A DNA stretch of 64,000 nt from Planctomycetota bacterium (lineage in GTDB: Bacteria > Planctomycetota > J058): NCBI GenBank assembly GCA_023954375.1, contig JAMLIC010000006.1:82972-146971 (forward strand). The letters are read 5' to 3'. Position numbers and translations under genes: made by a program. The notes beneath the pieces are model-generated. The model was not told the DNA's origin and ran no database searches. It was given only the letters and a program-made list of their open reading frames with translations. Below, piece by piece: positions 6,494 through 54,942 of the stretch; position 1 is the stretch's first letter; each line of letters begins with the position of its first letter.

Positions 6494-7941
6494 TGCTCGA
6501 CCTGGCGCTGGGGCTGCTCGTCGAGGGCGTCGGCGCCGAGCGCGGCGTCCTCGTGCTGCTGGGCGACGGCGGCGCCGCGGCCGAGACGGTCGCCCGCAAC
6601 ATCCGCGACGCCGAGCTCGAGGGCCACGACTTCGCCTACAGCCGGCGGATCGTCGAGGAGGTGGCCCGGACCGGCGCGCCGGTGCTCGTGCGCGACGCCT
6701 CGCGCGACCCGCGCTTCCGCGACGCCGAGTCGGTGGCCGGCCTGGCGATCCGCTCCGTGCTGGCGGTGCCGGTCGTCGGGCTCGCCGTGCTCTACCTCGA
6801 CGACCGCGCCGCCGCCGGCCGCTTCGACGACGCGTCGCGGGCCCTGGCCGAGCGCCTCGTGGACGAGCTCACGCCCTGCCTGGCCCTGATCCGCGACCGC
6901 GTGCGCCTCGAGCGCACGGTCGCCGGGCTGCGGGCGGCGCCGGCGAGCGATGAGCGCTGGACGATCGTCGGCGACGCCGAGCCCATGCGGCGCCTGCGGC
7001 GCGAGGCGGAGCGCGCTGCGCGCTGGCACCTGCCGCTCCTGATCGAGGGCGAGAGCGGGACGGGCAAGGCGCTCGTCGCGCGCGCCGTCCACGCCGCGAG
7101 CGGGCGGCGCGACGGGCCGTTCGTGGCCGAGTCGTGCGCGGCGATCTCGGACGAGCTCCTGCCGAGCGAGCTCTTCGGCCACGTGCGTGGCGCCTTCAGC
7201 GGGGCCGTCCGCGACCGCCAGGGGCTGTTCGAGACGGCGTCCGGGGGGACGCTCCTCCTCGACCAGGCCGCCGCCATGTCGCCCGCGCTCCAGGCCGCCC
7301 TCCTGCGCGTGCTCGAGGAGGGCGAGGTGCGGCCCCTGGGCGCGGAGAAGAAGCGGCGCGTCGACGTGCGCCTCATCGTGTCGACGAACGAGCCCCTCTC
7401 GGCGCTCGTCGCCGCCGGCCGCTTCCGCGAGGACCTGCTCTACCGGCTGAACGTCCTCCACCTGCGCGTGCCGCCCCTGCGCGAGCGGCGCGAGGACGTG
7501 CCGGCGCTCCTCGACCACTTCCTGCGCCGCTGCGCCGAGGAGGTCGGGCGGCCGCCGCCGGTCGTCGGCGACGCGGCGCGCGAGCTCCTCGTGGCCTTCC
7601 CCTGGCCGGGGAACGTGCGGCAGCTCGAGAACGAGGTGCGCCGGCTGGCGGCGCTGGGCGTGCGGCGCGTCCTGCCGCGCCACCTCACGGACGACGTCCT
7701 CGCCGGGGCGCGCGGCGGCGCGGGCGCCGCCCTGCCGGTCGAGCTGCGGCGGCTGATCGACGCCGGCAAGACGCTCGACGAGGTCCTGGGCGAGCAGGAG
7801 CGGGCGCTGATCGCCCAGGCGCTCGCGGCCTCGGGCGGGACCGTCGCGGGGGCAGCGCGCCTCCTCGGCCTCGAGCGGACGACGCTCCTGCGCCGGGCCC
7901 GGCGCCACGGCCTGCGCGCGGCGGACGGGGGCGGCGAGTGA
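6494..7941 (+). CDS. Sigma-54-dependent transcriptional activator with N-terminal GAF domain
   Basis: GAF-like N-terminus, then AAA+ domain with Walker A GESGTGK, the GAFSGA (GAFTGA-type) sigma-54 contact loop, ELFGH and an Arg finger. C-terminal Fis-type HTH (TVAGAARLLGLERTTLLRRARRHGL). The start is ATG 6494; an alternative is GTG 6385. Confidence 0.85.
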
Positions 7942-10315
7942 CCCCCGAGCAGGCGGACGAGGCGGCGGTCGCCCTGGGCCTGGCGCGCGGGTGGCTCTCG
8001 CCCGAGCAGGTGGAGAGGCGCCGCGCCCAGCGGCGGGCGCGGCCCGACGCGTCGCTCCTCGACCTCCTGGCCCGCTACGACCTCACGCCGGCGCACGCGG
8101 CGGCGCTCCGCGCCGCCCACCAGGCGGCGCTCGCCGGCCGCCCGCCGGAGGCGGCGGCGATGGCGGCGCTGCCGACCGACGCCCTGCACCCGCCGACGGC
8201 CTCGCGCCCCGCGGCGCGCATCGGGCGCTACGAGGTGGTGGCCCCGCTGGGCAAGGGCGGCATGGGCACCGTCCTGCGGGTGCGCGACGCCGCCGGACGC
8301 CTGCTGGCGCTCAAGCTCCTCCAGGCCGCCGCCAACCCCACCGCCCGCGCCCGCTTCGAGCGCGAGGCGCGCCTCCTCGGCCGGATGACCGCGGCCGACG
8401 GCTTCGTGCCGCTCCTCGACCTCGGCCACGGCCCGCAGGGCCCGTTCATCGTCATGCCGCTGCTCGAGGGCGGCAACCTGCGCCAGCGCCTCGAGCGCGG
8501 GCGGCCGACCGTCGACGAGGCGCTCGCGTGGGGGCGCGCGCTGGCGAGCGCCCTGGCGGAGGCGCACCGGCGGGGGATCGTCCATCGCGACGTGAAGCCC
8601 GAGAACGTGCTCTTCGACGACGACGGGCGGCCGCTCCTCGCCGACCTGGGGCTCGCCAAGCACTTCCGCGACGACGTGCCCGGCGCCACGTGGACGGTCT
8701 CGATCTCGCGCCGGGGCGACTGCATGGGCACGATCGGCTACATGGCGCCCGAGCAGATGCTCGACGCCAAGGCCGCGGGCCCGCCGGCCGACGTGTTCGC
8801 CCTGGGCGCCGTGCTGTTCGAGTGCCTCGCAGGCGCCCCCGCCTTCGCTGGCGAGTCGCCCATGGAGGTGGTGGCGGCCGTCACCGAGGGCCGGCGCGCC
8901 GCCCTGCGCGACCTGGCCCCGGAGGCGCCCGCGTGGCTGGTCGACGCTGTCGAGGCCGCCCTGGCCCACGACCCCGCCGCCCGCCCGGCGGACGGGGCCG
9001 CGCTCCTGCGGGCCCTGCGCGGGACCGCGCCGGCGCGCCGGCGACCGCCCTTCGCCCTGGCCGCGCTGGGCGGCGCGGCGCTGCTCGCCCTCACGCTCGC
9101 CGCGGTCGTCCTCCGGCCCGCGCCGCCGCCCCCGTCGCCTGCGTCTGCGCCGGACGCCCCGGCGTCGCGGTCCTCGGCGACGCTCGAGGGCGCGAGCGCG
9201 CTCGACCTCGACGAGGCCCTCGCCCTGGCCCGCGCGGCCGCCCCCGACGCCCCGGGGCTCGCGCGTCGAGCGCGGGCCCGCTGGCGCCTCGACGACCGGC
9301 GCGGGGCGCTCGACGACCTCACGCGCGCCGCGGCGCTCGCGCCCGACGACGGGGCCGTGTGGGTGGACCTGGGCCTCGCGCGGCTGGCGCTGGGCGACCT
9401 CGCGGGCGCGCGCGAGGCGGCGGAGCGCGCCCTGGAGCGCGCGCCCCGCCGCTGGGAGGCGTGGGCCCTGCGCGGGCGGGTCCGGACGGCCCAGGGGCAG
9501 GCGGTCGAGGCGGCGGCCGACGTGCACACCGCCTGCGAGCTGGCGCCCGACGAGGGCGAGGCCTGGGCGCACGCCGCCGCGGTGCTCGCCCCCCGGGAGG
9601 TCGCCCGCGCCGCCGAGGCCGCCGAGCGCGCGCTGGCGCTGGGCTGGCGCACGCCCGAGGCGCTCCTCGCGCGCGCCGGGGGGCGCCGGCACGTCGACCG
9701 CGCCGGCGCGCTGGCGGACGTCGACGAGGCCCTGCGCCTCGCGCCCGACCACGCGGCGGCGCACGCCGCGCGCGCGCTGACGCTCGTCGATGCGCTCCGC
9801 TACCGCGAGGCGCTCGCGGCCCTCGAGCGCGCCTGCGCGCTCGACCCCTCCCTGGCGGACGACGGGGAGCTCGCACGTCAGGGCGGCTTCCTCTACCTGA
9901 CGAGCGGCGACCTCCCGCGGGCGGTCGAGTGGCTCGACCGCGTCCTGGCGCAGACGCCCGACAACGCGCTCCTGCGCGTGCACCGCGGGGCGGCCCGCGT
10001 GCGGCTGGGCGAGCTCGCCCTCGCGCGCGCGGACCTCGATCGGGCGCTCGAGCTCGGGCCCGACCTCCCCTGGGCCTGGAGCGGCCGGGCGGCGCTCCTC
10101 GCGGCCGAGGGCGACCGGCCCGGGGCGCTCGAGGCGCTCGAGCGGGCGCTCGCCCTGGCGCCCGACTTCCCGGAGGCGCTCGAGGCCCGCGCGGCGCTGC
10201 GCCTGACGGCGGGCGACCGGGCGGCCGCCGCGCGCGACCTCGCGCGCGCGCTGGCGCTCGAGCCGGAGCGCGCGGAGCGGCTCGCGCCGGGGCTGCGCGC
10301 CCTGCGCGGCGAGCC

Positions 10316-45422: not shown

Positions 45423-46457
45423 GTGACCACCAACCACGTGACGAAGGCGTTCACGGAGGTCGACTTCGCCGAGCCCCACCGGGCCCGGCGCAAGGCGCTC
45501 CTCGCGCGGCATCCGGAGGTCCGGGCGCTCTTCGGCTACGACCGCCGCACGGCCGTGGTCGTGGCGGCCGTGGTCGCCCTCCAGCTCGCGCTGGCCTGGG
45601 GCGTCCAGCGCGCGTGGGAGGCCGCCGGCGGGGGCGCCGCGGCCGCGGCGGGGCTCGTCGCGCTGGCGCTCCTCGTGGGCGCGGTCCTGGCGCACTGGTG
45701 CGCCATGGGGATTCACGAGTGCTCGCACGACCTGGCCGCGCGCACGCCGCTGGGCAACCGCCTGGTGTCGCTCCTGGCCAACGTGCCGGTGGTGGTCCCC
45801 GCGGCCATGTCGTTCCACCGCTACCACCTCGACCACCACACGTACCTGGGCGTGCGCGAGCTCGACACCGACCTGGCCCCGGCGATCGAGCACCGCGTGA
45901 TCGACAACGTCGCCTGGCGCAAGCTGCTCGTCCTCCTCCTGTTCCCGGCGCTGTACCTGGTCCGCGGCCTCGGCTTCGCGCAGCGGCCCGACCGCTGGGA
46001 GGTGCTCAACCTCGCGCTGATGATCGGCGTCAACGCGCTGGTCGTCGTCCTCCTGGGCTGGCCCGCGCTGGCCTACCTGTTCCTCTCGTTCTGGTTCGGC
46101 CACGGGGTCCACCCCGTCGCCGCGCACTTCGTCCACGAGCACTACATCTGGACGGCGGGCCAGGAGACCTACTCCTACTACGGCCCGCTCAACCGGGTCA
46201 CGTTCAACGTCGGGCTGCACTACGAGCACCACGACCTGATGAACATCCCCGGCTGGCGCCTGCCCGAGCTGCGGCGCCTGGCGCCCGAGTTCTACGAGGG
46301 CCTCGTGGCCCACCGCTCGTGGACGGCGATCCTCTGGCGCTACGTGACGGACCCGCGCATCGGCCCCTACACCCGGCAGGTGCGCAGCGAGGAGACGTTC
46401 CGGCGCACGCGCGCGCCCGAGCGCCGCACCGGCCACGCGCTCGAGGCCGCCGCGTGA
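45423..46457 (+). CDS. Sphingolipid Δ4-desaturase (dihydroceramide desaturase DEGS/Des1) homologue
   Basis: Collinear with eukaryotic DEGS1. N-terminal Lipid_DES segment [21 protein letters not shown]. His boxes [15 protein letters not shown] and HYEHHD. The C-terminal block [47 protein letters not shown] matches the DEGS1 block [41 protein letters not shown] almost residue for residue. Confidence 0.85.
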   Translation: [344 protein letters not shown]

Positions 46458-47524
46458 CCGGGCTCGAGCTCCGCGACGCGGCGGCCGCGCCGTCCACGGG
46501 CGTGCGCGCGCTGGACGCGCTGGTGGCGCGCGTCCTGTGCGACCCGCGCGACGCCCCGCTCCTGGGCGTGGTCGTGGGGATGAGCCTCGTGCTCGTGCCG
46601 GGCGCGCTCGTCCTCTACGCGCCGGGCGGGTTCCGCTGGCCGCTCGCGGCCGCCTACCTGGCCGCGCTGTTCGGCCTGTTCTTCGACCGCTACATCCTCA
46701 TGCTCCACGCGACGCGGCACCGGCGCCTCTTCCGCCCGGGGCTCGAGCTCGACCCGTGGGTGGACTGGGTCCTGGGGCCGCTGGCGGGCCAGTCGCCCTG
46801 CACCTACCACGCCCACCACCTGGGGATGCACCACGTCGAGAACAACCTGTGGGCCGACGCCAGCTCGACCCTGCCCTACCGGCGCGACAGCGCGCTCGAC
46901 TTCCTGCGCTACTGGGGGCGCTTCCTCCTGGCCGGGGTCGTCGACCTCGTGGCGTACCTGCTCGGCCGCCGCCGCACGAAGCTGGCGCGCCGCGCCGCCC
47001 TGGGCGAGCTGGCCTACCTCGCGGCGCTGGGCGCGCTCCTGTGGGTCGACTGGCGGGCCACGCTGGTCGTGTTCGTCGTGCCGCTCGTCGCGGCCCGGTT
47101 CGCGATGATGGCCGGCAACTGGGCGCAGCACGCGTTCGTCGACCCGGCCGACCCGGGCAACCCGTACCGCAACAGCCTGACGACGATCAACACCCGCTAC
47201 AACCGCCGCTGCTTCAACGACGGCTACCACATCGGGCATCACCTCAAGCCGTCGCGTCACTGGAGCGAGCTGCCCGGCGAGCTCCTCGAGCACCTCGACA
47301 CGTACCGCGATCAGGGCGCGCTCGTGCTCGAGGGGCTCGACTTCTTCCAGGTCTGGGCCCTGCTGATGGTGAAGGACCATGACACCCTCGCCCGTCACGT
47401 CGTCCACCTCGGCGGCGCCCCCCGCAGCCACGACGAGACCGTCGCCCTCCTCCGGGCCCGCCTCGTCCCCGTCCCCGAGCCCGCCCCCGAACCCGTCGTC
47501 GTCCCCGTCGCCGTCGCCGCCTGA
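46454..47524 (+). CDS. Fatty-acid desaturase/hydroxylase superfamily membrane protein
   Basis: GTG start overlaps the DEGS-like stop (GTGA). His boxes HATRH, HAHHLGMHH and HIGHH. Four TM segments. Pro/Ala-rich C-terminal tail VPVPEPAPEPVVVPVAVAA. Confidence 0.7.
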   Translation: MTGLELRDAAAAPSTGVRALDALVARVLCDPRDAPLLGVVVGMSLVLVPGALVLYAPGGFRWPLAAAYLAALFGLFFDRYILMLHATRHRRLFRPGLELDPWVDWVLGPLAGQSPCTYHAHHLGMHHVENNLWADASSTLPYRRDSALDFLRYWGRFLLAGVVDLVAYLLGRRRTKLARRAALGELAYLAALGALLWVDWRATLVVFVVPLVAARFAMMAGNWAQHAFVDPADPGNPYRNSLTTINTRYNRRCFNDGYHIGHHLKPSRHWSELPGELLEHLDTYRDQGALVLEGLDFFQVWALLMVKDHDTLARHVVHLGGAPRSHDETVALLRARLVPVPEPAPEPVVVPVAVAA

Positions 47525-48869
47525 GCCGGCCCGGCCCGTCCCGCGGCTCTCGTTCCTCGGCTTCCTGCGCCACGTGCCGGGGCTCATCGGCGACCGCGCC
47601 GAGACGATCCGCCGCATCGCGGCGGCGCACGGGCCGGTCGTCCGCGTGCCGGTGCCCGGCAAGCCCTTCCACCTGGTGAGCTGCCCGCGCCTCGCGCGCC
47701 ACGTGCTGCTCACGAACAACAAGAACTACCGCAAGAGCTTCGACTGGAAGATCGTCCACTCGCTCCTGGGCGACGGGCTCGTGACCTCGCACGACGACGT
47801 GTGGCGCCACGCGCGCTCGGCGACGGCGCCCGTGTTCCGCCAGGAGCCGGTGATGCGCATGGCCGCCGCCCTGAAGGACGTGGTGGCCGAGGAGGTCGCC
47901 GGCTGGGGGGCGCCCGGCGGCGTCCTTCCGACCGGCGCCGCAACGACGCGGCTGGCCCTGCGCGCCTTCGCGCGCGCGGCGCTGGACGTCGACGCCGACC
48001 CGGTGGACCTCGACGAGATCACGCGCGCCGTCTCGGCGGGCCTGCGCCACCTCGACGCGCGCCTGGGGGCCCCGGTCGACCTGGCGGCGCGCCTGCCCAC
48101 GCCCGGCCGGCTGCGCTTCGCGCGCGCCCGGGCGCGCCTCGACGCCGTCCTCTACCGGTGGATCGACGCCGCCGCCGCGCGCGCGCCGGGGCCGGACCTG
48201 CTGTCGGTGCTCCTCCAGGCCTCGCGCGCCCTGCCCGACCCCGCCCTCGCGCCGCGCGTGTGGCTGCGCGACCAGCTCGTCACCTTCCTGCTCGCCGGGC
48301 ACGAGACGGTGGCCGTGTCGCTCACGTGGTGCCTGCACCTCCTCGCCACCCACCCCGACGCGCAGCGGCGCGCCCGCGAGGGGCTCCCGGGCGACGGCGA
48401 GGCCCTGGGCCCGTGGCTGGGCGCCTGGACCCCGCTCGACGCCGTGATCCACGAGGCCCTGCGCCTGTTCCCGCCCGTCTGGTCGCTCGGGCGCGAGGCG
48501 GTGGCCGACGACCGCCTGGGCGACCTGCACCTCCCCGCCGGCGCGACGGTGATGGTCAGCCCCTACGCCATCCACCGCCGCGCCGACCTGTGGCCCGAGC
48601 CCGACGCGTTCCGGCCGGAGCGCTTCGCCGCCGGCCCGCCGCCGCAGGGCGGCACGGACGGGCTGACCTACCTGCCGTTCAGCGCCGGGCCGCGCCTGTG
48701 CCCGGGCGACCGCCTGGCGCTGGTCGAGCTGAAGCTGGCCCTGCGCGAGGTCCTGCGCCGCTTCGAGGTCGCGCCCACCCGCCCGGGCCCGGTCGCCTGC
48801 GAGGCGCTCATCTCGCTCCGTCCGCGCCGCGAGCTCTTGCTGCGCCTGACCGCCCTGGGCCCGGCGTGA
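47379..48869 (+). CDS. Cytochrome P450
   Basis: I-helix AGHETVA, ExxR (EALRLFPP), haem loop FSAGPRLCPGDRLALVELKLAL. The only in-frame start upstream of the conserved N-terminal PRLSFLGFL motif is ATG 47379, which overlaps the preceding gene by 146 nt; the next is GTG 47572, which truncates it. The start is uncertain and this may be a fusion. Confidence 0.8.
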   Translation: MTPSPVTSSTSAAPPAATTRPSPSSGPASSPSPSPPPNPSSSPSPSPPEPARPVPRLSFLGFLRHVPGLIGDRAETIRRIAAAHGPVVRVPVPGKPFHLVSCPRLARHVLLTNNKNYRKSFDWKIVHSLLGDGLVTSHDDVWRHARSATAPVFRQEPVMRMAAALKDVVAEEVAGWGAPGGVLPTGAATTRLALRAFARAALDVDADPVDLDEITRAVSAGLRHLDARLGAPVDLAARLPTPGRLRFARARARLDAVLYRWIDAAAARAPGPDLLSVLLQASRALPDPALAPRVWLRDQLVTFLLAGHETVAVSLTWCLHLLATHPDAQRRAREGLPGDGEALGPWLGAWTPLDAVIHEALRLFPPVWSLGREAVADDRLGDLHLPAGATVMVSPYAIHRRADLWPEPDAFRPERFAAGPPPQGGTDGLTYLPFSAGPRLCPGDRLALVELKLALREVLRRFEVAPTRPGPVACEALISLRPRRELLLRLTALGPA

Positions 48870-51205
48870 CCTGGCTCGAGGGCGCGCTGCGGCTCCTCCT
48901 GCGCCGCCGGGCGGCGGCCGCGGCGCTGCTGGCGCTGGTCACGGCGGGCAGCCTCGTGGGGGCCTCGCGGCTGACCGTCCAGGGCTCGATCGAGGCGTGG
49001 TTCCTCGAGGACGACGCCAGCCTGGGGCGCTACCACGCCTTCCGCGAGCGCTTCGGCGCGGACGAGTTCGTGGTGGTGGCCGCGATCGGCCCGGGCGCGC
49101 GCACGCCGGCCGGCCTGGCGCTCATGGAGCGCGTGCGCCGCGCGGCCGAGCGCCTCCCCGAGGTCCACCGCACGCGCTGGGTGACGAACGCCGCCGTGGT
49201 CCAGCCGCGGGGCGACGACGCCCTGGACACGGGCCCCCTGGCCGCGACCCTGCCCGCCGACCCGGCCGGCGTCGACGCGCTGTGGGCCCGGGCGGCCTCG
49301 CTGCGCGCCGCCCGCGGCCTGGTCGTCGACGGGCCGGCGCCGGCCACGTCGATGCTCGTGGAGCTGCGGCGCGAGGCGCAGACGATCGACGGCAAGCTGG
49401 CGCTCGTGGACGGCCTGCGCCGCGCCCTCGCCGCGGCGGGCGCCGCCGAGGTGCCGGACGTCGAGGTCGTGCTCAGCGGGCCGCCGGTCTTCGACGAGGC
49501 GTTCGTCCGCCACACCGAGCGCGACCTCGCGGCCCTGGCGCCGCTGGGGCTGGCCCTCCTCCTCGGCGTGCTCTGGGTGTCCCTGCGCAGCCTGGCGCAC
49601 GCGCTCGTCCCGGTCGGCGTCGTCGCCGCCGCCACCTGCTGGCTCCTCGGCGCGATGGGCCTGATCGGCCACGAGCTGGGGATCACCTCGAGCAACCTCC
49701 TGTGCGTGGTCCTGGCCGTCGGCGTGGCGGACGGGGTCCACCTGGTGAGCGAGCTGCGCGCGGGCCTCGCGCGGGGGCTGGCGCGCGAGGACGCCATCTG
49801 CGCCGCGGCGGCCGGCGTGTTCGTCCCCTGCACGCTGACCACGGCGACCACGGCGCTGGGGATGCTGTCCCTCTGCGCGGGCGAGATCCTGCCGATCCGC
49901 GAGTTCGGCCTGCAGGCCGCCCTGGGGGTGGCGCTCTGCTGGGCGGCCACGTTCACCCTGGCGCCGCTGCTCGCCTCCGTCGTCGCGGCGCGCGCGGCGC
50001 CCGCGCCCGGCCCGCACTGGGCGGCGCGCGTCGGCCGACTCGGCCGCCGGGGGCGCCTGGCGGTGCTGTGGGGCGCGGCGCTCGTGGTGGCCGCCTCGCT
50101 GGCCGGGCTGGCCCGCCTCGAGGTGGGGGTGAACCCGGTGGAGTACTTCCGCCGCGACGACCCCGTGCGCCGCGCGACCGAGCGGATCGACGCCACCCTC
50201 GGGGGCACCGCGAACCTCGAGCTGTGGGTGCGCGCGCGCGGGGAGGCGGGCCTCGAGGACCCGGCCGCGCTGGCGCGGCTCGAGGCCCTGCGCCGCGACC
50301 TCGAGCGCGAGCGCGGCGTCTCCTACAGCCAGTCGCTCCTCGACCCCATGAGCGACCTGCACCGCGCCTTCGCCGGCGAGGACGGCCTCCCCGCGGCGCG
50401 GGAGCTGGCCGCGCAGTACCTCCTCGTGCTCGCGTCGGACGAGCAGCTCGGCCGCCTCGTCCAGCCCGACCACCGCGGCGGCCGGCTCAGCCTGCGCACG
50501 CAGATGTCCATGACCGACCGGCCGCTCGAGGTCATCGAGCGCGTGGCGGCGCGCGCGGCGGACCCGGCCCTGGCGGCCGCCGGGGTGGACGTCGAGGTCA
50601 CGGGCTACGTGCACCTGATGGCGACCATGTACGACCACCTGCTGCGCAGCCAGCTGAAGTCGCTCCTGCTCGCCTTCGTGACCGTCACCGTCTGCATGGT
50701 GGCGCTGGCGCGCTCGCTGCGCCTCGGCCTCGTCTCCATGGTCCCCAACGTCCTGCCCGTCGTGGTCGGCGGCGGCCTCATGGGGGCGCTCGGCATCCGC
50801 CTGGACGTGGGGACCGTCATGATCGCCGGGGTCGTGCTCGGGCTGGTCGTCGACGACACGACGCACCTCCTGGCGCGCCTGACCCGCTCCCTGCGGGCCG
50901 CGCCCGACCGGCCCGCGGAGGACGCGGTCGCGCAGGCGCTGGGGGAGCTCGGCCGCCCGCTCGTGACCACGAGCGTGGCCCTCGCGGCGGGCTTCGGAGC
51001 GCTCGCCTGCGGGCACTTCCTCGTGAACGTCTACTTCGGGCTCATGTCCGCGGTCGTGGTGCTCGTGGCGCTGGTCGCCGACCTCGTGGTCACGCCCACG
51101 CTCGTCGTCGTGCTCGCGCCCTGGCTCCTCGGGCGCGGCGAGCCGGCGGCGGCCGGCGCGCCGTGCGAACGCGCGGCCGCGCCCCCGGCGAGCGCGGCGG
51201 CCTGA
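48866..51205 (+). CDS. MMPL/RND-superfamily lipid transporter (HpnN-like)
   Basis: GTG start overlaps the P450 stop (GTGA). Two repeats of a periplasmic domain followed by a TM bundle, 12 TM helices in all. The MMPL/sterol-sensing-like TM region (GLALLLGVLWVSLRSL...GVADGVHLVSEL) is duplicated in the C-terminal half. Confidence 0.8.
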   Translation: MTWLEGALRLLLRRRAAAAALLALVTAGSLVGASRLTVQGSIEAWFLEDDASLGRYHAFRERFGADEFVVVAAIGPGARTPAGLALMERVRRAAERLPEVHRTRWVTNAAVVQPRGDDALDTGPLAATLPADPAGVDALWARAASLRAARGLVVDGPAPATSMLVELRREAQTIDGKLALVDGLRRALAAAGAAEVPDVEVVLSGPPVFDEAFVRHTERDLAALAPLGLALLLGVLWVSLRSLAHALVPVGVVAAATCWLLGAMGLIGHELGITSSNLLCVVLAVGVADGVHLVSELRAGLARGLAREDAICAAAAGVFVPCTLTTATTALGMLSLCAGEILPIREFGLQAALGVALCWAATFTLAPLLASVVAARAAPAPGPHWAARVGRLGRRGRLAVLWGAALVVAASLAGLARLEVGVNPVEYFRRDDPVRRATERIDATLGGTANLELWVRARGEAGLEDPAALARLEALRRDLERERGVSYSQSLLDPMSDLHRAFAGEDGLPAARELAAQYLLVLASDEQLGRLVQPDHRGGRLSLRTQMSMTDRPLEVIERVAARAADPALAAAGVDVEVTGYVHLMATMYDHLLRSQLKSLLLAFVTVTVCMVALARSLRLGLVSMVPNVLPVVVGGGLMGALGIRLDVGTVMIAGVVLGLVVDDTTHLLARLTRSLRAAPDRPAEDAVAQALGELGRPLVTTSVALAAGFGALACGHFLVNVYFGLMSAVVVLVALVADLVVTPTLVVVLAPWLLGRGEPAAAGAPCERAAAPPASAAA

Positions 51206-51230: not shown

Positions 51231-51944
51231 TCAGACCACGTGCGACCACGCGAACGCCGGGCAGCCGATCGCGACGACCTCGACCTCGCCCGTGTAGACC
51301 CGCGCCCCGGGCGCGGCGAAGCCGACCTTCTCGTGCACGAAGGTCACCGTGCGAACGGCCCGCGCGGCGGCGCCCAGCGGGACGCCCCGGTCGGAGTCGA
51401 GGCCCGAGGGGATGTCGACCGCGACCCTCGGCCGCGGGTCCTGATCGAGGGCGCGGACGAGGCCGAGGCCCGGCTCGCGCAGGGCGCCCTCGAGGCCCGT
51501 CCCGTAGAGCGCGTCGACGACCAGCGCCGCCCCGGGCCGCGCCGCGAGCCAGGCGGCCAGGGCGGCCCCGTCGGGCGCCTCGTCGACCTGCTCCCCCGCG
51601 CGCTCGAGCACGGCGAGGTTCACGCCGGCGTCGGTCCCGCGGTCGACCAGCGCGAGGCGGCCGGCGAGGGCCACGCGCGGCCGCCAGCCGAGGAGCAGGA
51701 GGTGGCGCGCGAGGACGAAGCCGTCGCCGCCGTTGTTGCCGCGTCCGCAGACGACCAGGACCTCGGCCCCCGGCGGCGCGCCCCGCGCGCGCAGGTCGCG
51801 GTCGACGGCCGCGGTCAGGCCGCGGCCGGCGTTCTCCATGAGGACGAGGCCCGGGAGGCCCAGGTCCTCGATCGCCCGGCGATCGACCTCGCGCACCTCG
51901 GCGCGGGAGAGAGGGCGCGGTGGCCGGGCGAAGGTCGACTCCAT
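51231..51944 (-). CDS. nnrE: NAD(P)H-hydrate epimerase (YjeF N-terminal domain)
   Basis: AEVREVDRRAIEDLGLPGLVLMENAGRG...VLVVCGRGNNGGDGFVLARHL is the YjeF_N signature. ATG at 51944. The track ORF is extended upstream. Confidence 0.75.
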   Translation of the reverse strand: MESTFARPPRPLSRAEVREVDRRAIEDLGLPGLVLMENAGRGLTAAVDRDLRARGAPPGAEVLVVCGRGNNGGDGFVLARHLLLLGWRPRVALAGRLALVDRGTDAGVNLAVLERAGEQVDEAPDGAALAAWLAARPGAALVVDALYGTGLEGALREPGLGLVRALDQDPRPRVAVDIPSGLDSDRGVPLGAAARAVRTVTFVHEKVGFAAPGARVYTGEVEVVAIGCPAFAWSHVV

Positions 51945-52182
51945 GGCGCCCGAAGATACGGCCCTCGTGGCCGGCGACCAGGACACCTGGCGGGGACGCG
52001 CGTGGCCCCTCGGTTCCGGCGCCTCGGCCGGGCCGAGGCCCCCTGGCCACGCGGCCGCCGCCGCCGCGGGACGCCCGGGGCGCCCGAGGAGCGCGCGGCC
52101 GGCCGCCGCCTGGGCGCCGCCGTCGACTCCCTTGCAGGGCACGTCTATCATGTGCCGCCAACGGCAGGAGCGCGCGACACGC

Positions 52183-54942
52183 ATGAAGATCTCCGTCATC
52201 GGCACCGGCTACGTCGGCCTCGTCACCGGGACCTGCTTCGCCGACAACGGCAACGACGTCTGGTGCGTCGACATCGACGAGAAGAAGATCGAGCGGCTGA
52301 ACCGCGGCGAGGTCCCGATCTACGAGCCGGGCCTCGACCAGATGATCGAGCGCAACGTCCAGGGCGAGCGCCTCCGGTTCACGACCGACCTGGCCGACGC
52401 CGTCCGCCGCACGCGGATCGTGTTCCTCTGCGTCGGGACCCCGTCCGCGCCCGACGGCTCGCCCGACATGCGCTACGTCTACAAGGCCGCCGAGGACGTG
52501 GCCCGCGCCATGGAGGAGCACACGATCCTCGTCCTCAAGTCGACCGTCCCCGTGGGCACGGCCGCCGAGGTGCGCAAGCGCGTGGCGGCCGCCACGAAGC
52601 TCCCCTTCGACGTCGTCAGCAACCCCGAGTTCCTCAAGGAGGGCCACGCGGTCGACGACTTCCTCAAGCCCGACCGCGTCGTGATCGGCACCGACGACCC
52701 ACGCGTGGCCCTGATCATGAAGGAGCTCTACGACCCCTTCGTGCGCACGGGCAACCCGATCCTCGTCATGGACAACGTCTCGGCCGAGCTGACGAAGTAC
52801 GGCGCCAACGCGCTGCTCGCCGCGCGCATCTCGTTCATGAACGAGCTGGCCAACCTCGCCGACCGCGTCGGCGCCGACATCAACCAGGTGCGGCAGGGGA
52901 TGGGCAGCGATGCGCGGATCGGACACTCGTTCCTGTTCCCGGGCATCGGCTACGGGGGCAGCTGCCTCCTCGGCCGCGAGACCGTCCTGGTGCGCCAGGG
53001 CGGGCGGGTCCGGCTGACCCGCTTCGACCGCCTGTTCGCGGCGCTCGCGCCCGGGGCGGGCGATGAGGCCGGCGCGGTCGCGCCGGAGGGGCTCGAGGTC
53101 CTCTCCTGGGAGCCGTCGACGGGCGCGCCGTCGTGGCGGCCGGTCTCCGCCGTCACCCGCCGCCCCTTCGAGGGCGAGGCGCTCGAGGTGCGCACGAAGA
53201 TGGGCCGCCGGGTCCGCTGCACGCCCGACCACCCGTTCGTCGCCTCCGACGCGGCGCACGGTCCGCGGCGCGTCGTGCTCGCCGCCGAGCTGACCGCCGA
53301 CCACTGGCTGCCCCTGGCGCAGGGGCGCGAGCAGGGCGAGGCGCCGCGCCGCGTCGACCTGCTCGGGAGCCTCGAGCGGCTCGGCGTGCGCCAGGACGAG
53401 GTGATCGTCCGCTTGGCCCCCGCGGTCGCCGCGGCGCTGGACGTCCGCGTCGTCCGGGCCGCGATCGAGCGCCTCGGCGAGCACGCCTCGCCCGCATCGC
53501 GCGCCCACGACATCGTCCGCAACGGCGCGCTCCGCCTCCACGAGGCGCGCGCGCTGGGGGTGGCGCTCGAGGGCGCCGCGCTCGGGACGGCGAAGAACGG
53601 CACCTACGTGCCGACCGGCCTCGACCTCGACGAGGCGTTCTGGCGCGTCGTCGGGCTCTACATCGCCGAGGGTCACTGCTCGGTCGACGGGCGTCGGCAC
53701 CGGCTCTCCTGGTCGTTCCACCCGACCGACGAGGACGCCCTCGTCGAGGAGGTGGCGGCCTTCTGGGAGCGGCTGGGCGTCAAGGCGACGGTCCTCCGGC
53801 GGTCCACCACGACCCAGGTGACCGTCTCGTCGCGCCTCCTGGCGACCTGGTGGCTGGGTGAGCTCGGCCTCGGCGCCGACTGCTACGCGCAGCGCGTCCC
53901 CGACCTCGTCTGGGAGCAGCCCGAGGCCCACCGCCGGGCGCTGCTCGCCGGGGTCTGGCAGGGCGACGGGTCGTGGTCGCGCGTCAACGGCGGCCCGAGC
54001 GTCGTGCTCGAGCACGGCACGGCCAGCCCGGAGCTGGCGGACGGCCTCCTCCGGCTCCTCGGGGACCTCGGCATCGTGGCGCGGACCAAGGTGGGCCGCA
54101 CCGCGAAGTCGACCGTCGACACGCACTGGCTCGTGGTCTCCGGCGCCGACCAGGTCGAGCGGCTGGTCGACCTGGTGAAGCCGGCCCAGCGCGCCGACCT
54201 CGTCGGGAGCGTCGCGCGCCAGCTGAAGCGCATCGCCCCAACGGGGTACCGGCGCTTCGAGGGGGACGCGTCGGCCTGGGTCCGCGTGACCGAGGTCCGT
54301 CGCCGCCCCTACCAGGGCTGGGTCTACTCGCTCGAGGTCCCCGGGCCCGAGACGTTCGTGACGACGGGCGGCCTCGTCGTCCACAACTGCTTCCCCAAGG
54401 ACGTGGACGCCCTCGGTTACACCGGCAAGAACGCCGGCATGGACCTCAAGCTGCTCGCCGCCACCAACGAGGTGAACCGCACGCAGAAGCGGGTCCTGTT
54501 CGACAAGATCAGCGCGCGCTTCGGCGGCGACCTGAAGGGCAAGCGGATCGCGATCTGGGGCCTGGCGTTCAAGCCGCGCACCGACGACATGCGCGAGGCG
54601 CCCTCGCTGACCGTGATCGGCCTCCTGCTCGAGGCCGGCGCCACCGTCCACGCCTACGACCCGGCGGCGACCGAGACGACCCGCGCCGTGCTGGGCGACA
54701 GGATCCAGTACGCGCAGAAGCAGTACCGGGCGCTCGAGGGCGCCGACGCGCTGGCGATCTGCACCGAGTGGAACGAGTTCCGCCGCCCCGACTGGGAGCG
54801 GATCAGGGCGTCGCTCCGGCAGCCGATCATCTTCGACGGCCGCAACATCTTCGAGCCGGCGCGCGTCGAGGAGGCGGGCTTCGAGTACTACGGCATCGGC
54901 CGCGGGCGCAAGCTCGAGCTGTCGCCGCGGGCGAGGGGCTGA
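52183..54942 (+). CDS. ugd: UDP-glucose 6-dehydrogenase interrupted by an in-frame intein (precursor 919 aa)
   Basis: N-extein MKISVIGTGYVGLVTG...GIGYGGS, then the intein, then C-extein CFPKDVDALGYTG...KPRTDDMREAPS... Splicing would restore the catalytic motif GGSCFPKD. All Ugd signature segments are present in the exteins. Confidence 0.9.
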   Translation: MKISVIGTGYVGLVTGTCFADNGNDVWCVDIDEKKIERLNRGEVPIYEPGLDQMIERNVQGERLRFTTDLADAVRRTRIVFLCVGTPSAPDGSPDMRYVYKAAEDVARAMEEHTILVLKSTVPVGTAAEVRKRVAAATKLPFDVVSNPEFLKEGHAVDDFLKPDRVVIGTDDPRVALIMKELYDPFVRTGNPILVMDNVSAELTKYGANALLAARISFMNELANLADRVGADINQVRQGMGSDARIGHSFLFPGIGYGGSCLLGRETVLVRQGGRVRLTRFDRLFAALAPGAGDEAGAVAPEGLEVLSWEPSTGAPSWRPVSAVTRRPFEGEALEVRTKMGRRVRCTPDHPFVASDAAHGPRRVVLAAELTADHWLPLAQGREQGEAPRRVDLLGSLERLGVRQDEVIVRLAPAVAAALDVRVVRAAIERLGEHASPASRAHDIVRNGALRLHEARALGVALEGAALGTAKNGTYVPTGLDLDEAFWRVVGLYIAEGHCSVDGRRHRLSWSFHPTDEDALVEEVAAFWERLGVKATVLRRSTTTQVTVSSRLLATWWLGELGLGADCYAQRVPDLVWEQPEAHRRALLAGVWQGDGSWSRVNGGPSVVLEHGTASPELADGLLRLLGDLGIVARTKVGRTAKSTVDTHWLVVSGADQVERLVDLVKPAQRADLVGSVARQLKRIAPTGYRRFEGDASAWVRVTEVRRRPYQGWVYSLEVPGPETFVTTGGLVVHNCFPKDVDALGYTGKNAGMDLKLLAATNEVNRTQKRVLFDKISARFGGDLKGKRIAIWGLAFKPRTDDMREAPSLTVIGLLLEAGATVHAYDPAATETTRAVLGDRIQYAQKQYRALEGADALAICTEWNEFRRPDWERIRASLRQPIIFDGRNIFEPARVEEAGFEYYGIGRGRKLELSPRARG
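52963..54387 (+). mobile_element. Intein (475 aa) with LAGLIDADG homing-endonuclease domain inside ugd
   Basis: Begins with Cys1 (CLLGRETVLV). Ends with the canonical His-Asn (GGLVVHN) followed by +1 Cys (CFPKD). Block B-like TPDHPF. Two LAGLIDADG motifs: VGLYIAEGHCS and LLAGVWQGDGSWS. Confidence 0.85.

Follow-up and report, generated by a model that had tools for sequence, protein, structure and literature searches.

The locus and its genes

In a 64,000-nucleotide stretch of DNA from a Planctomycetota bacterium (assembly GCA_023954375.1, contig JAMLIC010000006.1; the whole stretch is called the window below, and its G+C content is 76%), a fatty-acid desaturase gene, Des2, is followed by a cytochrome P450 gene read in a different frame, and the question addressed here is where the P450 begins. 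A first-pass annotation had offered two readings of this junction, namely a natural desaturase-P450 fusion split by a frameshift, and an out-of-frame overlap of 146 nucleotides (nt) that begins at an ATG inside Des2. Comparison with orthologous loci favours the second. The genes and features concerned are the following (aa, amino acids).

45423..46457, + strand: Des1, first gene of the module, sphingolipid-delta4-desaturase-like (Pfam PF08557, Lipid_DES, 3.6e-10; PF00487, 2.6e-20)
46454..47524, + strand: Des2, FA_desaturase of 356 aa (PF00487, 5.8e-21), its last 48 codons and stop overlapped by the P450 frame
47371..47376, + strand: purine-rich, Shine-Dalgarno (SD)-like GAAGGA, 2 nt 5' of ATG 47379 (anti-SD duplex, -4.8 kcal/mol)
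47379..47381, + strand: proposed P450 start ATG, built from the Des2 codons His (CAT) and Asp (GAC), the first start past the in-frame TGA 47370
47379..47524, + strand: putative phase-1 overlap of the Des2 3' end and the P450 5' end, 146 nt, read in the P450 frame as a Ser/Pro/Thr/Ala leader
47379..48869, + strand: P450 coding sequence as proposed, 496 aa (PF00067, 3.7e-56 over residues 56-469)
47464..47519, + strand: tandem repeat of the hexamer CGTCCC, 9.3 copies (Tandem Repeats Finder), in the Pro/Val/Ala-coding spacer past the Des2 tail block
47522-47524, + strand: Des2 stop TGA; orthologues differ in where this stop lies with respect to the P450 motif
47541..47567, + strand: P450 N-terminal motif P-R-L-S-F-L-G-F-L, residues 55-63, before the annotated GTG
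47574..47576, + strand: GTG (Val66), the start in the public annotation (431-aa product), rejected here as a conserved start
48866..51205, + strand: MMPL/RND (HAE3-like) transporter, final gene of the module (PF03176, 8.2e-25; TIGR00921, 2.6e-49)

Des2 scores 75.8 bits against PF00487 (cut-off 29.7), and its histidine boxes (H85/H89, H121/H122, H126/H127 and H259/H262/H263) are invariant in the alignment of the Des2 family. The P450 scores 191 bits against PF00067 (cut-off 22.8) and matches the heme-ligand motif F-x-x-G-x-R-x-C-x-G with FSAGPRLCPG, in which F434, G437, R439, C441 and G443 are invariant in the P450 alignment. Its nearest folds are CYP184A1 (in complex with oleate; 32% identity), the heme domain of P450 BM3 and CYP97; the P450 is in itself an ordinary member of its class. 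The two outer junctions of the module, Des1/Des2 (46454-46457) and P450/MMPL (48866-48869), are GTGA overlaps of 4 nt.

At the Des2/P450 junction the P450 is read at +1 relative to Des2; its frame is closed by the TGA at 47370-47372 and lies open from 47373. ATG 47379 had been named as the sole earlier in-frame start, and the frame scan bears this out: the P450 frame holds no ATG, GTG or TTG between ATG 47379 and GTG 47574, and no near-cognate CTG, ATT, ATC or ATA between 47382 and the N-terminal motif, the only such codon being CTG 47565, inside the motif. The absence of a start between the Des2 stop at 47524 and the downstream GTG had been reported correctly, with that GTG placed at 47572 instead of 47574. 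Translation from ATG 47379 gives the 48-residue leader that had been described as Ser/Pro-rich, composed of Ser, Pro, Thr and Ala, before E49-P-A-R-P-V-P-R-L-S-F, and Des2 ends in VPVPEPAPEPVVVPVAVAA / RLVPVPEPAPEPVVVPVAVAA, followed by its stop. Two same-strand open reading frames (ORFs) in different frames that share at least 60 nt constitute a long co-directional overlap; the two ORFs considered here share 146 nt. The G+C content of third codon positions (GC3) reaches 100% in the P450 frame from ~47520 onward. Inside the overlap both frames stand at 0.85 or above because of the Pro/Val/Ala codon composition, and frame-specific GC3 does not place a frame switch there.

Conservation of the embedded ATG

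Orthologous junctions were collected from Logan runs (including SRR12908349 and SRR17973841), the NCBI metagenome-assembled genome (MAG) JAHBXY01, and JGI and ENA contigs, all from different samples. Three loci (L001, L002 and L009; Logan runs and the NCBI MAG, labelled Planctomycetota) encode a P450 ~96% identical to that of the window. Among the others, L014 is 80% identical in Des2, and the identities are 74% for L003, ~70% for L004/L015 and 68-71% for L005, L006, L007, L008 and L016. Des2 and the P450 are separate genes in all orthologous loci retrieved, and this layout in two frames is shared by at least 9 independent assemblies from ~7 lineages, with Des2 identity down to 66%. The first-pass annotation itself had named, as the pattern at odds with a fusion, orthologous pairs of unfused genes whose P450 start corresponds to ATG 47379, and this is the pattern seen at these loci.

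The ATG occupies the identical place in Des2 in the window, L001, L002, L009, L014, L003, L005, L006, L007, L008 and L016, whose Des2 proteins are 66-96% identical. It is built from the Des2 codons K/G-(D/A)-H-(D/G), which read ..CAT G.., and in-frame stops immediately precede it. Overlaps of 134, 140, 107, 119, 104, 107 and 107 nt in orthologues and of 146 nt in the window all equal 2 modulo 3 and are thus in phase 1, as would be an overlap of 200 or 26 nt in L014. In 7 lineages the P450 frame stands at Des2 +1. The offset is +2 in L004/L015, in which a GTG overlaps the Des2 TGA (GTGA); the His codon there is CAC and the next codon CGG, hence no ATG is formed. The ATG is missing only in this lineage, which has another start at the Des2 stop. 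In L014, Des2 (373 aa) carries a long Pro/Val/Leu-repeat tail; the upstream CAT-G ATG (1676) is kept, which would give a 200-nt overlap, and a second in-frame ATG (1850) lies 26 nt before the Des2 stop. This locus may be an intermediate in the shedding of a long overlap. The Des2 TAG of L007 and L016 falls inside the Pro-Arg/Ser codons of the P450 motif, and therefore some overlap is unavoidable there.

The codon that supplies this ATG is rare. CAT accounts for 3.8% of the His codons (11/290) in 23 confident ORFs of the window and for 3-7% in each lineage's operon genes, the site itself left out. CAT followed by G is nevertheless kept in all 7 lineages without a start near the Des2 stop, and neighbouring synonymous sites have clearly turned over among lineages. 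In the wider Des2 family the position is usually Tyr, His being specific to the clade. In L007 and L016, a Lys-to-Gly change that uses the rare codon GGA yields GGGAG, which keeps the SD-like stretch. From these comparisons the ATG looks selected, held through the rare CAT codon; judged by its recurrence and its dependence on rare CAT, the junction layout is more than chance.

In the distant orthologues L010-L013 and L018 (59-65% GC; Myxococcota/Sandaracinaceae-type MAGs), Des1 is followed directly by the P450, which has an ordinary ATG beside the motif, and Des2 is absent from the loci; in L017 the P450 comes first, then Des1. Des2 sits between Des1 and the P450 in the high-GC clade only. A scan of metagenome contigs with the P450 alignment returned 80 loci and no new Des2-P450 junctions. 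Only L017 and L018 among them were distant orthologues; the rest were generic P450s (27-37% identity), which dominated the scan because the heme-motif pattern prevailed.

The P450 N-terminus and the annotated start

A start at the annotated GTG would remove PRLSFLGFL, as had been pointed out at the outset: the motif ends before GTG 47574. In the form P-R-L-S-F-x-x-F-L it is kept in all close orthologues. Orthologues of 44-48% identity keep it too and begin with a Met that lies 2-10 residues ahead of it, as in MQPPALSF, MMEPPRLPF and MTQSPPQMPRLAF. Across 8 lineages, the P, L, F and F of the motif are invariant over varying codons, and synonymous to nonsynonymous counts are 54:67 in the motif segment, similar to the 139:142 in the next 22 undisputed codons. 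In an AlphaFold2 model of the P450 (mean predicted local distance difference test score, pLDDT, 80.5), residues 51-60 reach a pLDDT of 91 and residues 1-40 stay below 55; a helix at 59-71 spans Val66, and residues 51-71 are ordered across GTG 47574. The segment upstream of this GTG is very probably translated, as judged from its coding-type conservation. A role of the leader as signal or anchor was also considered and was rejected in view of the lack of a hydrophobic stretch and the predicted disorder.

The Val66 codon is GTG in 4 of the 8 lineages, GTC in 3 and GTA in 1. In L016 the next start after its upstream ATG is a GTG that precedes VRVPVPGK by three codons and would delete ~65 conserved residues. 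With GTC or GTA in half of the lineages and no start at this place in L016, GTG 47574 is therefore not a conserved start. Since no downstream start keeps the conserved N-terminus, the P450 is not a 5' extension artefact. The NCBI entries MBX3465956.1 and MCO5166470.1, both from 'Planctomycetota bacterium' MAGs, model the P450 as 431 aa from the GTG of Val66, and the models of other gene callers range over 399-434 aa; the 431-aa and similar public models are probably truncated at the N-terminus by ~65 residues or more.

The overlapped end of Des2

Des2 orthologues are 337-373 aa long and all single-domain. The overlapped tail (TLARHVVHLGG.PR....VALLRARL.PV) falls on columns that are conserved among 24 members of the family, the most distant of them 47% identical. 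Across the family it follows the pattern TLA..V.L..(P)R....ALLR.R, in which L312, A313, V317, L333 and R336 are invariant, and the members, of similar lengths, end 3-18 residues past this block. Because the tail is conserved in the family, the overlapped part is real Des2 coding sequence and not a 3' extension artefact. Between the window, L001 and L009, the Des2 tails vary in length by 6 and 12 nt; these are multiples of 3, and both frames are therefore preserved; the hexamer repeat is the likely source of this 3n length variation.

A separate observation concerns codon usage in this part of Des2. Within the overlap (window 47385-47475) the Des2 frame has unusually many A/T-ending codons across lineages (CGT, GCT, GCA, CGA, GAT, GGT, CCT and GGA), in module genes whose GC3 is otherwise ~97-100%. 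These codons may reflect the second frame or relaxed selection.

Weighing the explanations

We put at about 0.7 the probability that Des2 and the P450 are two separate genes and that the P450 starts at ATG 47379 within a conserved phase-1 overlap, as opposed to a broken fusion or a sequencing error. Several points count against this explanation. The SD-like element is weak, its spacing is 2 nt, and energies of -5 kcal/mol or below occur at 20% of background positions. At ATG-bearing loci the equivalent of ATG 47379 pairs better with the anti-SD than the other candidate starts that were compared; as these energetics are not significant against the background, the support they lend is weak. The product of the CAT frequencies over the 7 ATG-bearing lineages, 2.8e-10 if these were independent, is overstated because the lineages are related; they amount to ~5-7 semi-independent observations. 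Synonymous diversity, measured at conserved Des2 residues as the mean difference in synonymous codons between pairs, shows no difference between the overlap (0.246 over 13 columns) and the part upstream of it (0.253 over 143 columns). The P450 leader therefore appears to be without constraint of its own, and the idea that the leader sequence itself is under selection was dropped. Beyond the ATG-forming codon, the only conspicuously constrained one, the alignments hold no dual-coding signature. In L014, given its second ATG, the upstream ATG may not be the start used. The organisms are known only as MAGs, and initiation at ATG 47379 is what we infer from their sequences. [quoted passage not shown]

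The fused reading was addressed through homologues. The top 120 P450 homologues are all 399-489 aa long with PF00067 only, and the top 120 Des2 homologues are all 324-414 aa long with PF00487 only; neither set contains a desaturase-P450 fusion. A hypothetical 804-aa Des2-P450 fusion, made by removing one C before the TGA, was compared with 1.84 billion cluster representatives, and no protein matched across both halves; the best matches were single-domain (at most 383 bits). As a true fusion would out-score every single-domain match, a fusion was judged absent among these representatives. Ten longer matches were checked in Pfam and proved to be P450-P450, SnoaL-P450, PAP2-P450, desaturase-condensation or desaturase-hydroxylase proteins, or P450s extended at the N-terminus by a region without a Pfam match. 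One continuous ORF over both domains exists neither in the window, where TGA 47522 ends Des2, nor in any ortholog. The proposed natural fusion split by a frameshift is thus not supported: these searches yielded no fused homologue, and the split layout is the one kept across the lineages. Apart from the locus under study, and unrelated to it, the search brought up several unusual architectures: tandem P450-P450 proteins, a Des2-family desaturase with a condensation/WS-DGAT-like domain, PAP2-P450 and SnoaL-P450 (listed as P0249, P0358, P0363 (912-928 aa) and P0252 (627 aa)).

The first-pass annotation had invoked a -1 shift as the join between the frames. Such a ribosomal shift would reach the third frame and not that of the P450; what is needed is +1 (or -2) for a ribosome, or one base removed from the DNA. 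Removal of a base could point to an assembly or sequencing indel, or to a recent frameshift mutation and hence a pseudogene, in a gene originally fused or differently started. Deletion of one C in GCC-GCC-TGA (47516-47521) does give a continuous 804-aa ORF, and GC-rich repeats are error-prone. Nevertheless, a sequencing error, which had been among the suggested causes, is excluded because the same frames recur in many independent assemblies from different samples; close relatives differ in length by multiples of 3 (6 and 12 nt), the two intact genes have a GC3 close to 1.0, and fusion homologues are lacking, which makes any indel of this kind extremely improbable. A programmed +1 ribosomal frameshift, in the Pro/Val/Ala spacer or at the Des2 stop, would produce a Des2-P450 fusion alone or beside free Des2. 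The +1 frame relation shared by 7 lineages and the repetitive, low-complexity spacer are in line with it, and in L003, L007 and L016, where Des2 ends with CCC-TGA/TAG, a slip would join straight onto RLSF; a CCC-stop context is prone to +1 slippage. However, Des2 ends with GCC-TGA in the window, L001, L009 and L005 and with GGC-TGA in L014 and L006, which leaves no conserved slippery site, and Ala or Gly tRNAs are unable to re-pair in the +1 frame. The stop lies at distances from the motif that differ by tens of nt, L004/L015 combine another frame offset with a normal GTGA junction, no fused relative was found among the homologues searched, and the conserved rare CAT-G 100-200 nt upstream would be left unexplained. 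We therefore consider a programmed shift very unlikely, the residual possibility being small and limited to L003, L007 and L016.

The remaining alternatives concern the start of a separate P450 gene. If translation began at GTG 47574 (Val66), there would be no long overlap, the 49 nt after the Des2 stop would be untranslated, and PRLSF would not be in the protein. This start or its equivalent was chosen in P0001, P0007, P0008 and MBX3465956.1/MCO5166470.1 (431 aa), and it avoids a long overlap, which according to surveys is usually an annotation error (PMC2478687). We hold it to be unlikely in view of the GTC/GTA codons in 4 of 8 lineages and the missing start in L016, the absence of an SD (-1.7 kcal/mol), the GC3 of 100% in the P450 frame already from ~47520, and the coding-like motif upstream, kept in distant orthologues with Met just before it (residues 50-65 read EPARPVPRLSFLGFLRH); it would also cut the AlphaFold helix 59-71 mid-way. 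A non-canonical start codon close to the Des2 stop, used in coupling with the termination of Des2, would imply a short overlap and no long leader. It would agree with the other two operon junctions, whose GTGA -4 overlaps are typical of termination-reinitiation coupling (PMC10666635), and with the starts that L014 and L004/L015 have evolved at or near the Des2 stop. Against it, the window has neither a standard nor a near-cognate start codon in frame between 47382 and the motif, and the conserved rare CAT-G would again be unexplained, so that such a start seems quite improbable.

A model for the proposed embedded start

In the favoured model, four genes (Des1, Des2, P450, MMPL) make up a conserved operon for lipid modification in which Des2 and the P450 are distinct, and for the P450 ribosomes would initiate de novo inside the 3' coding region of Des2, at ATG 47379, preceded by the weak GAAGGA element 2 nt upstream. 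Termination-reinitiation is impossible at this position because the Des2 stop lies 146 nt downstream. P450 residues 1 to ~48-50 would then form an 'overprinted', disordered Ser/Pro/Thr/Ala leader dictated by the Des2 codons, presumably functionless and a by-product of the relocation of the start, and the folded P450 would begin near residue 50 with PRLSFLGFL. Peptides such as MTPSPVTSSTSAAPPAATTR and EPARPVPR would fit a P450 product from ATG 47379.

As to the origin of this arrangement, the Met that directly precedes the motif in distant orthologues may be ancestral and have been lost once Des2 lay upstream. An in-frame ATG inside Des2 would then have been recruited and held by selection on the rare CAT, and L014 and L004/L015 would later have gained starts near the Des2 stop. 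We further speculate, as a long shot, that the embedded ATG and the Pro/Ser leader could tie the synthesis of the P450 to the Des2 mRNA-ribosome complex inserted in the membrane (a 'pseudo-fusion'), or that a partial +1 shift could produce a true fusion in the CCC-TGA/TAG lineages. If true, the pseudo-fusion would place an otherwise soluble-type P450 next to the desaturase, and in either case the pair would be the longest conserved functional co-directional overlap documented in bacteria, ~2-3 times the 56 nt of holD/rimI.

Relation to known systems

The longest co-directional overlap accepted in the survey of 338 genomes is that of holD/rimI in Enterobacteria, with up to 56 nt (PMC2478687). 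Long same-strand overlaps of this type resemble the Des2/P450 pair in that two functional genes lie in different frames and the downstream start lies inside the upstream coding region. The overlap is also conserved among orthologues with a genus-specific length, and its proposed origin is that a lost start is replaced from the neighbouring gene (PMC3887535, PMC2478687). They differ in extent, since the proposed Des2/P450 overlap measures 104-146 nt (at most 200 in L014) against at most 56 nt; it would also yield a disordered leader of ~48 aa that is missing in distant orthologues. Unidirectional overlaps are said to arise when a start or stop is replaced by one inside the neighbouring gene (PMC3887535), and long overlaps that persist are mostly in phase 1 (PMC10666635). 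The putative origin of the overlap and its phase 1 match these published models. By the rule of Pallejà et al. (PMC2478687) the P450 would be flagged as a '5' extension'. Unlike the artefacts of that survey, however, it has no downstream start that keeps its conserved N-terminus, and its ATG covaries with the absence of alternatives.

Coupled pairs with -4 nt ATGA/GTGA overlaps are represented by Des1/Des2, P450/MMPL, and the Des2/P450 pair of L004/L015, which is exactly of this type; the Des2/P450 pair of the window differs from them in that its start lies 146 nt before the stop, which precludes reinitiation and requires de novo internal initiation. The heme-reductase fusion CYP102A1/P450 BM3 offers a likeness in that the nearest folds of the P450 are fatty-acid-binding P450s and its gene adjoins lipid desaturases, whereas Des2/P450 lacks both a fused ORF and a reductase domain, and its relatives include no desaturase-P450 fusion. 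As in +1 frameshifting of the prfB type, the 0-frame ends at a stop and continues in the +1 frame; unlike there, no shifty codon is conserved with the stop, and the frame offset is not universal among Des2/P450 orthologues. The Des2/P450 pair is an unusually long example of an already known overlap type and not a new type of system.

Neighbouring genes

None of the four module proteins matches an NCBIfam equivalog, and the matches of the MMPL protein to HpnN and BstA are weak and far below cut-off. In one orthologous locus (L006 735-8290; ENA ERZ795105 NODE_440), a radical-SAM + DUF3463 gene and a PNP_UDP_1 gene border the Des1-Des2-P450-MMPL module; we take these two to resemble HpnH and HpnG in composition. 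The module may act on hopanoid-like or other polycyclic lipids. In the window no hpn genes adjoin it, and a literature search for the Des1-Des2-P450-MMPL module or for links between hopanoids and desaturases or P450s found nothing specific. L007 carries a second P450 gene, 33% identical, downstream of the MMPL gene (6682-8053). Further along the window, an ORF for a UDP-glucose/GDP-mannose dehydrogenase (51508-54939, + strand; PF03721, PF00984, PF03720) is split by an intein with a LAGLIDADG homing-endonuclease domain (Intein_splicing at aa 546-960, LAGLIDADG_3 at aa 809-888).

Implications

These results do not point to a new enzyme architecture, as there is no desaturase-P450 fusion. They do bear on any work with the P450 itself: expression from the annotated GTG start could give a misfolded protein, from which ~65 N-terminal residues, including the conserved structured segment, are probably missing. 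They also bear on annotation, in which filters that allow no long overlaps can place starts wrongly when the GC content of a genome is very high. As a diagnostic, one could look genome-wide for rare synonymous codons of an upstream gene that are kept only if they serve the downstream gene as a start. Altogether, the Des2/P450 pair is a candidate with good support for a genuine co-directional overlap, one well beyond the ~60 nt that surveys have taken as a sign of error.

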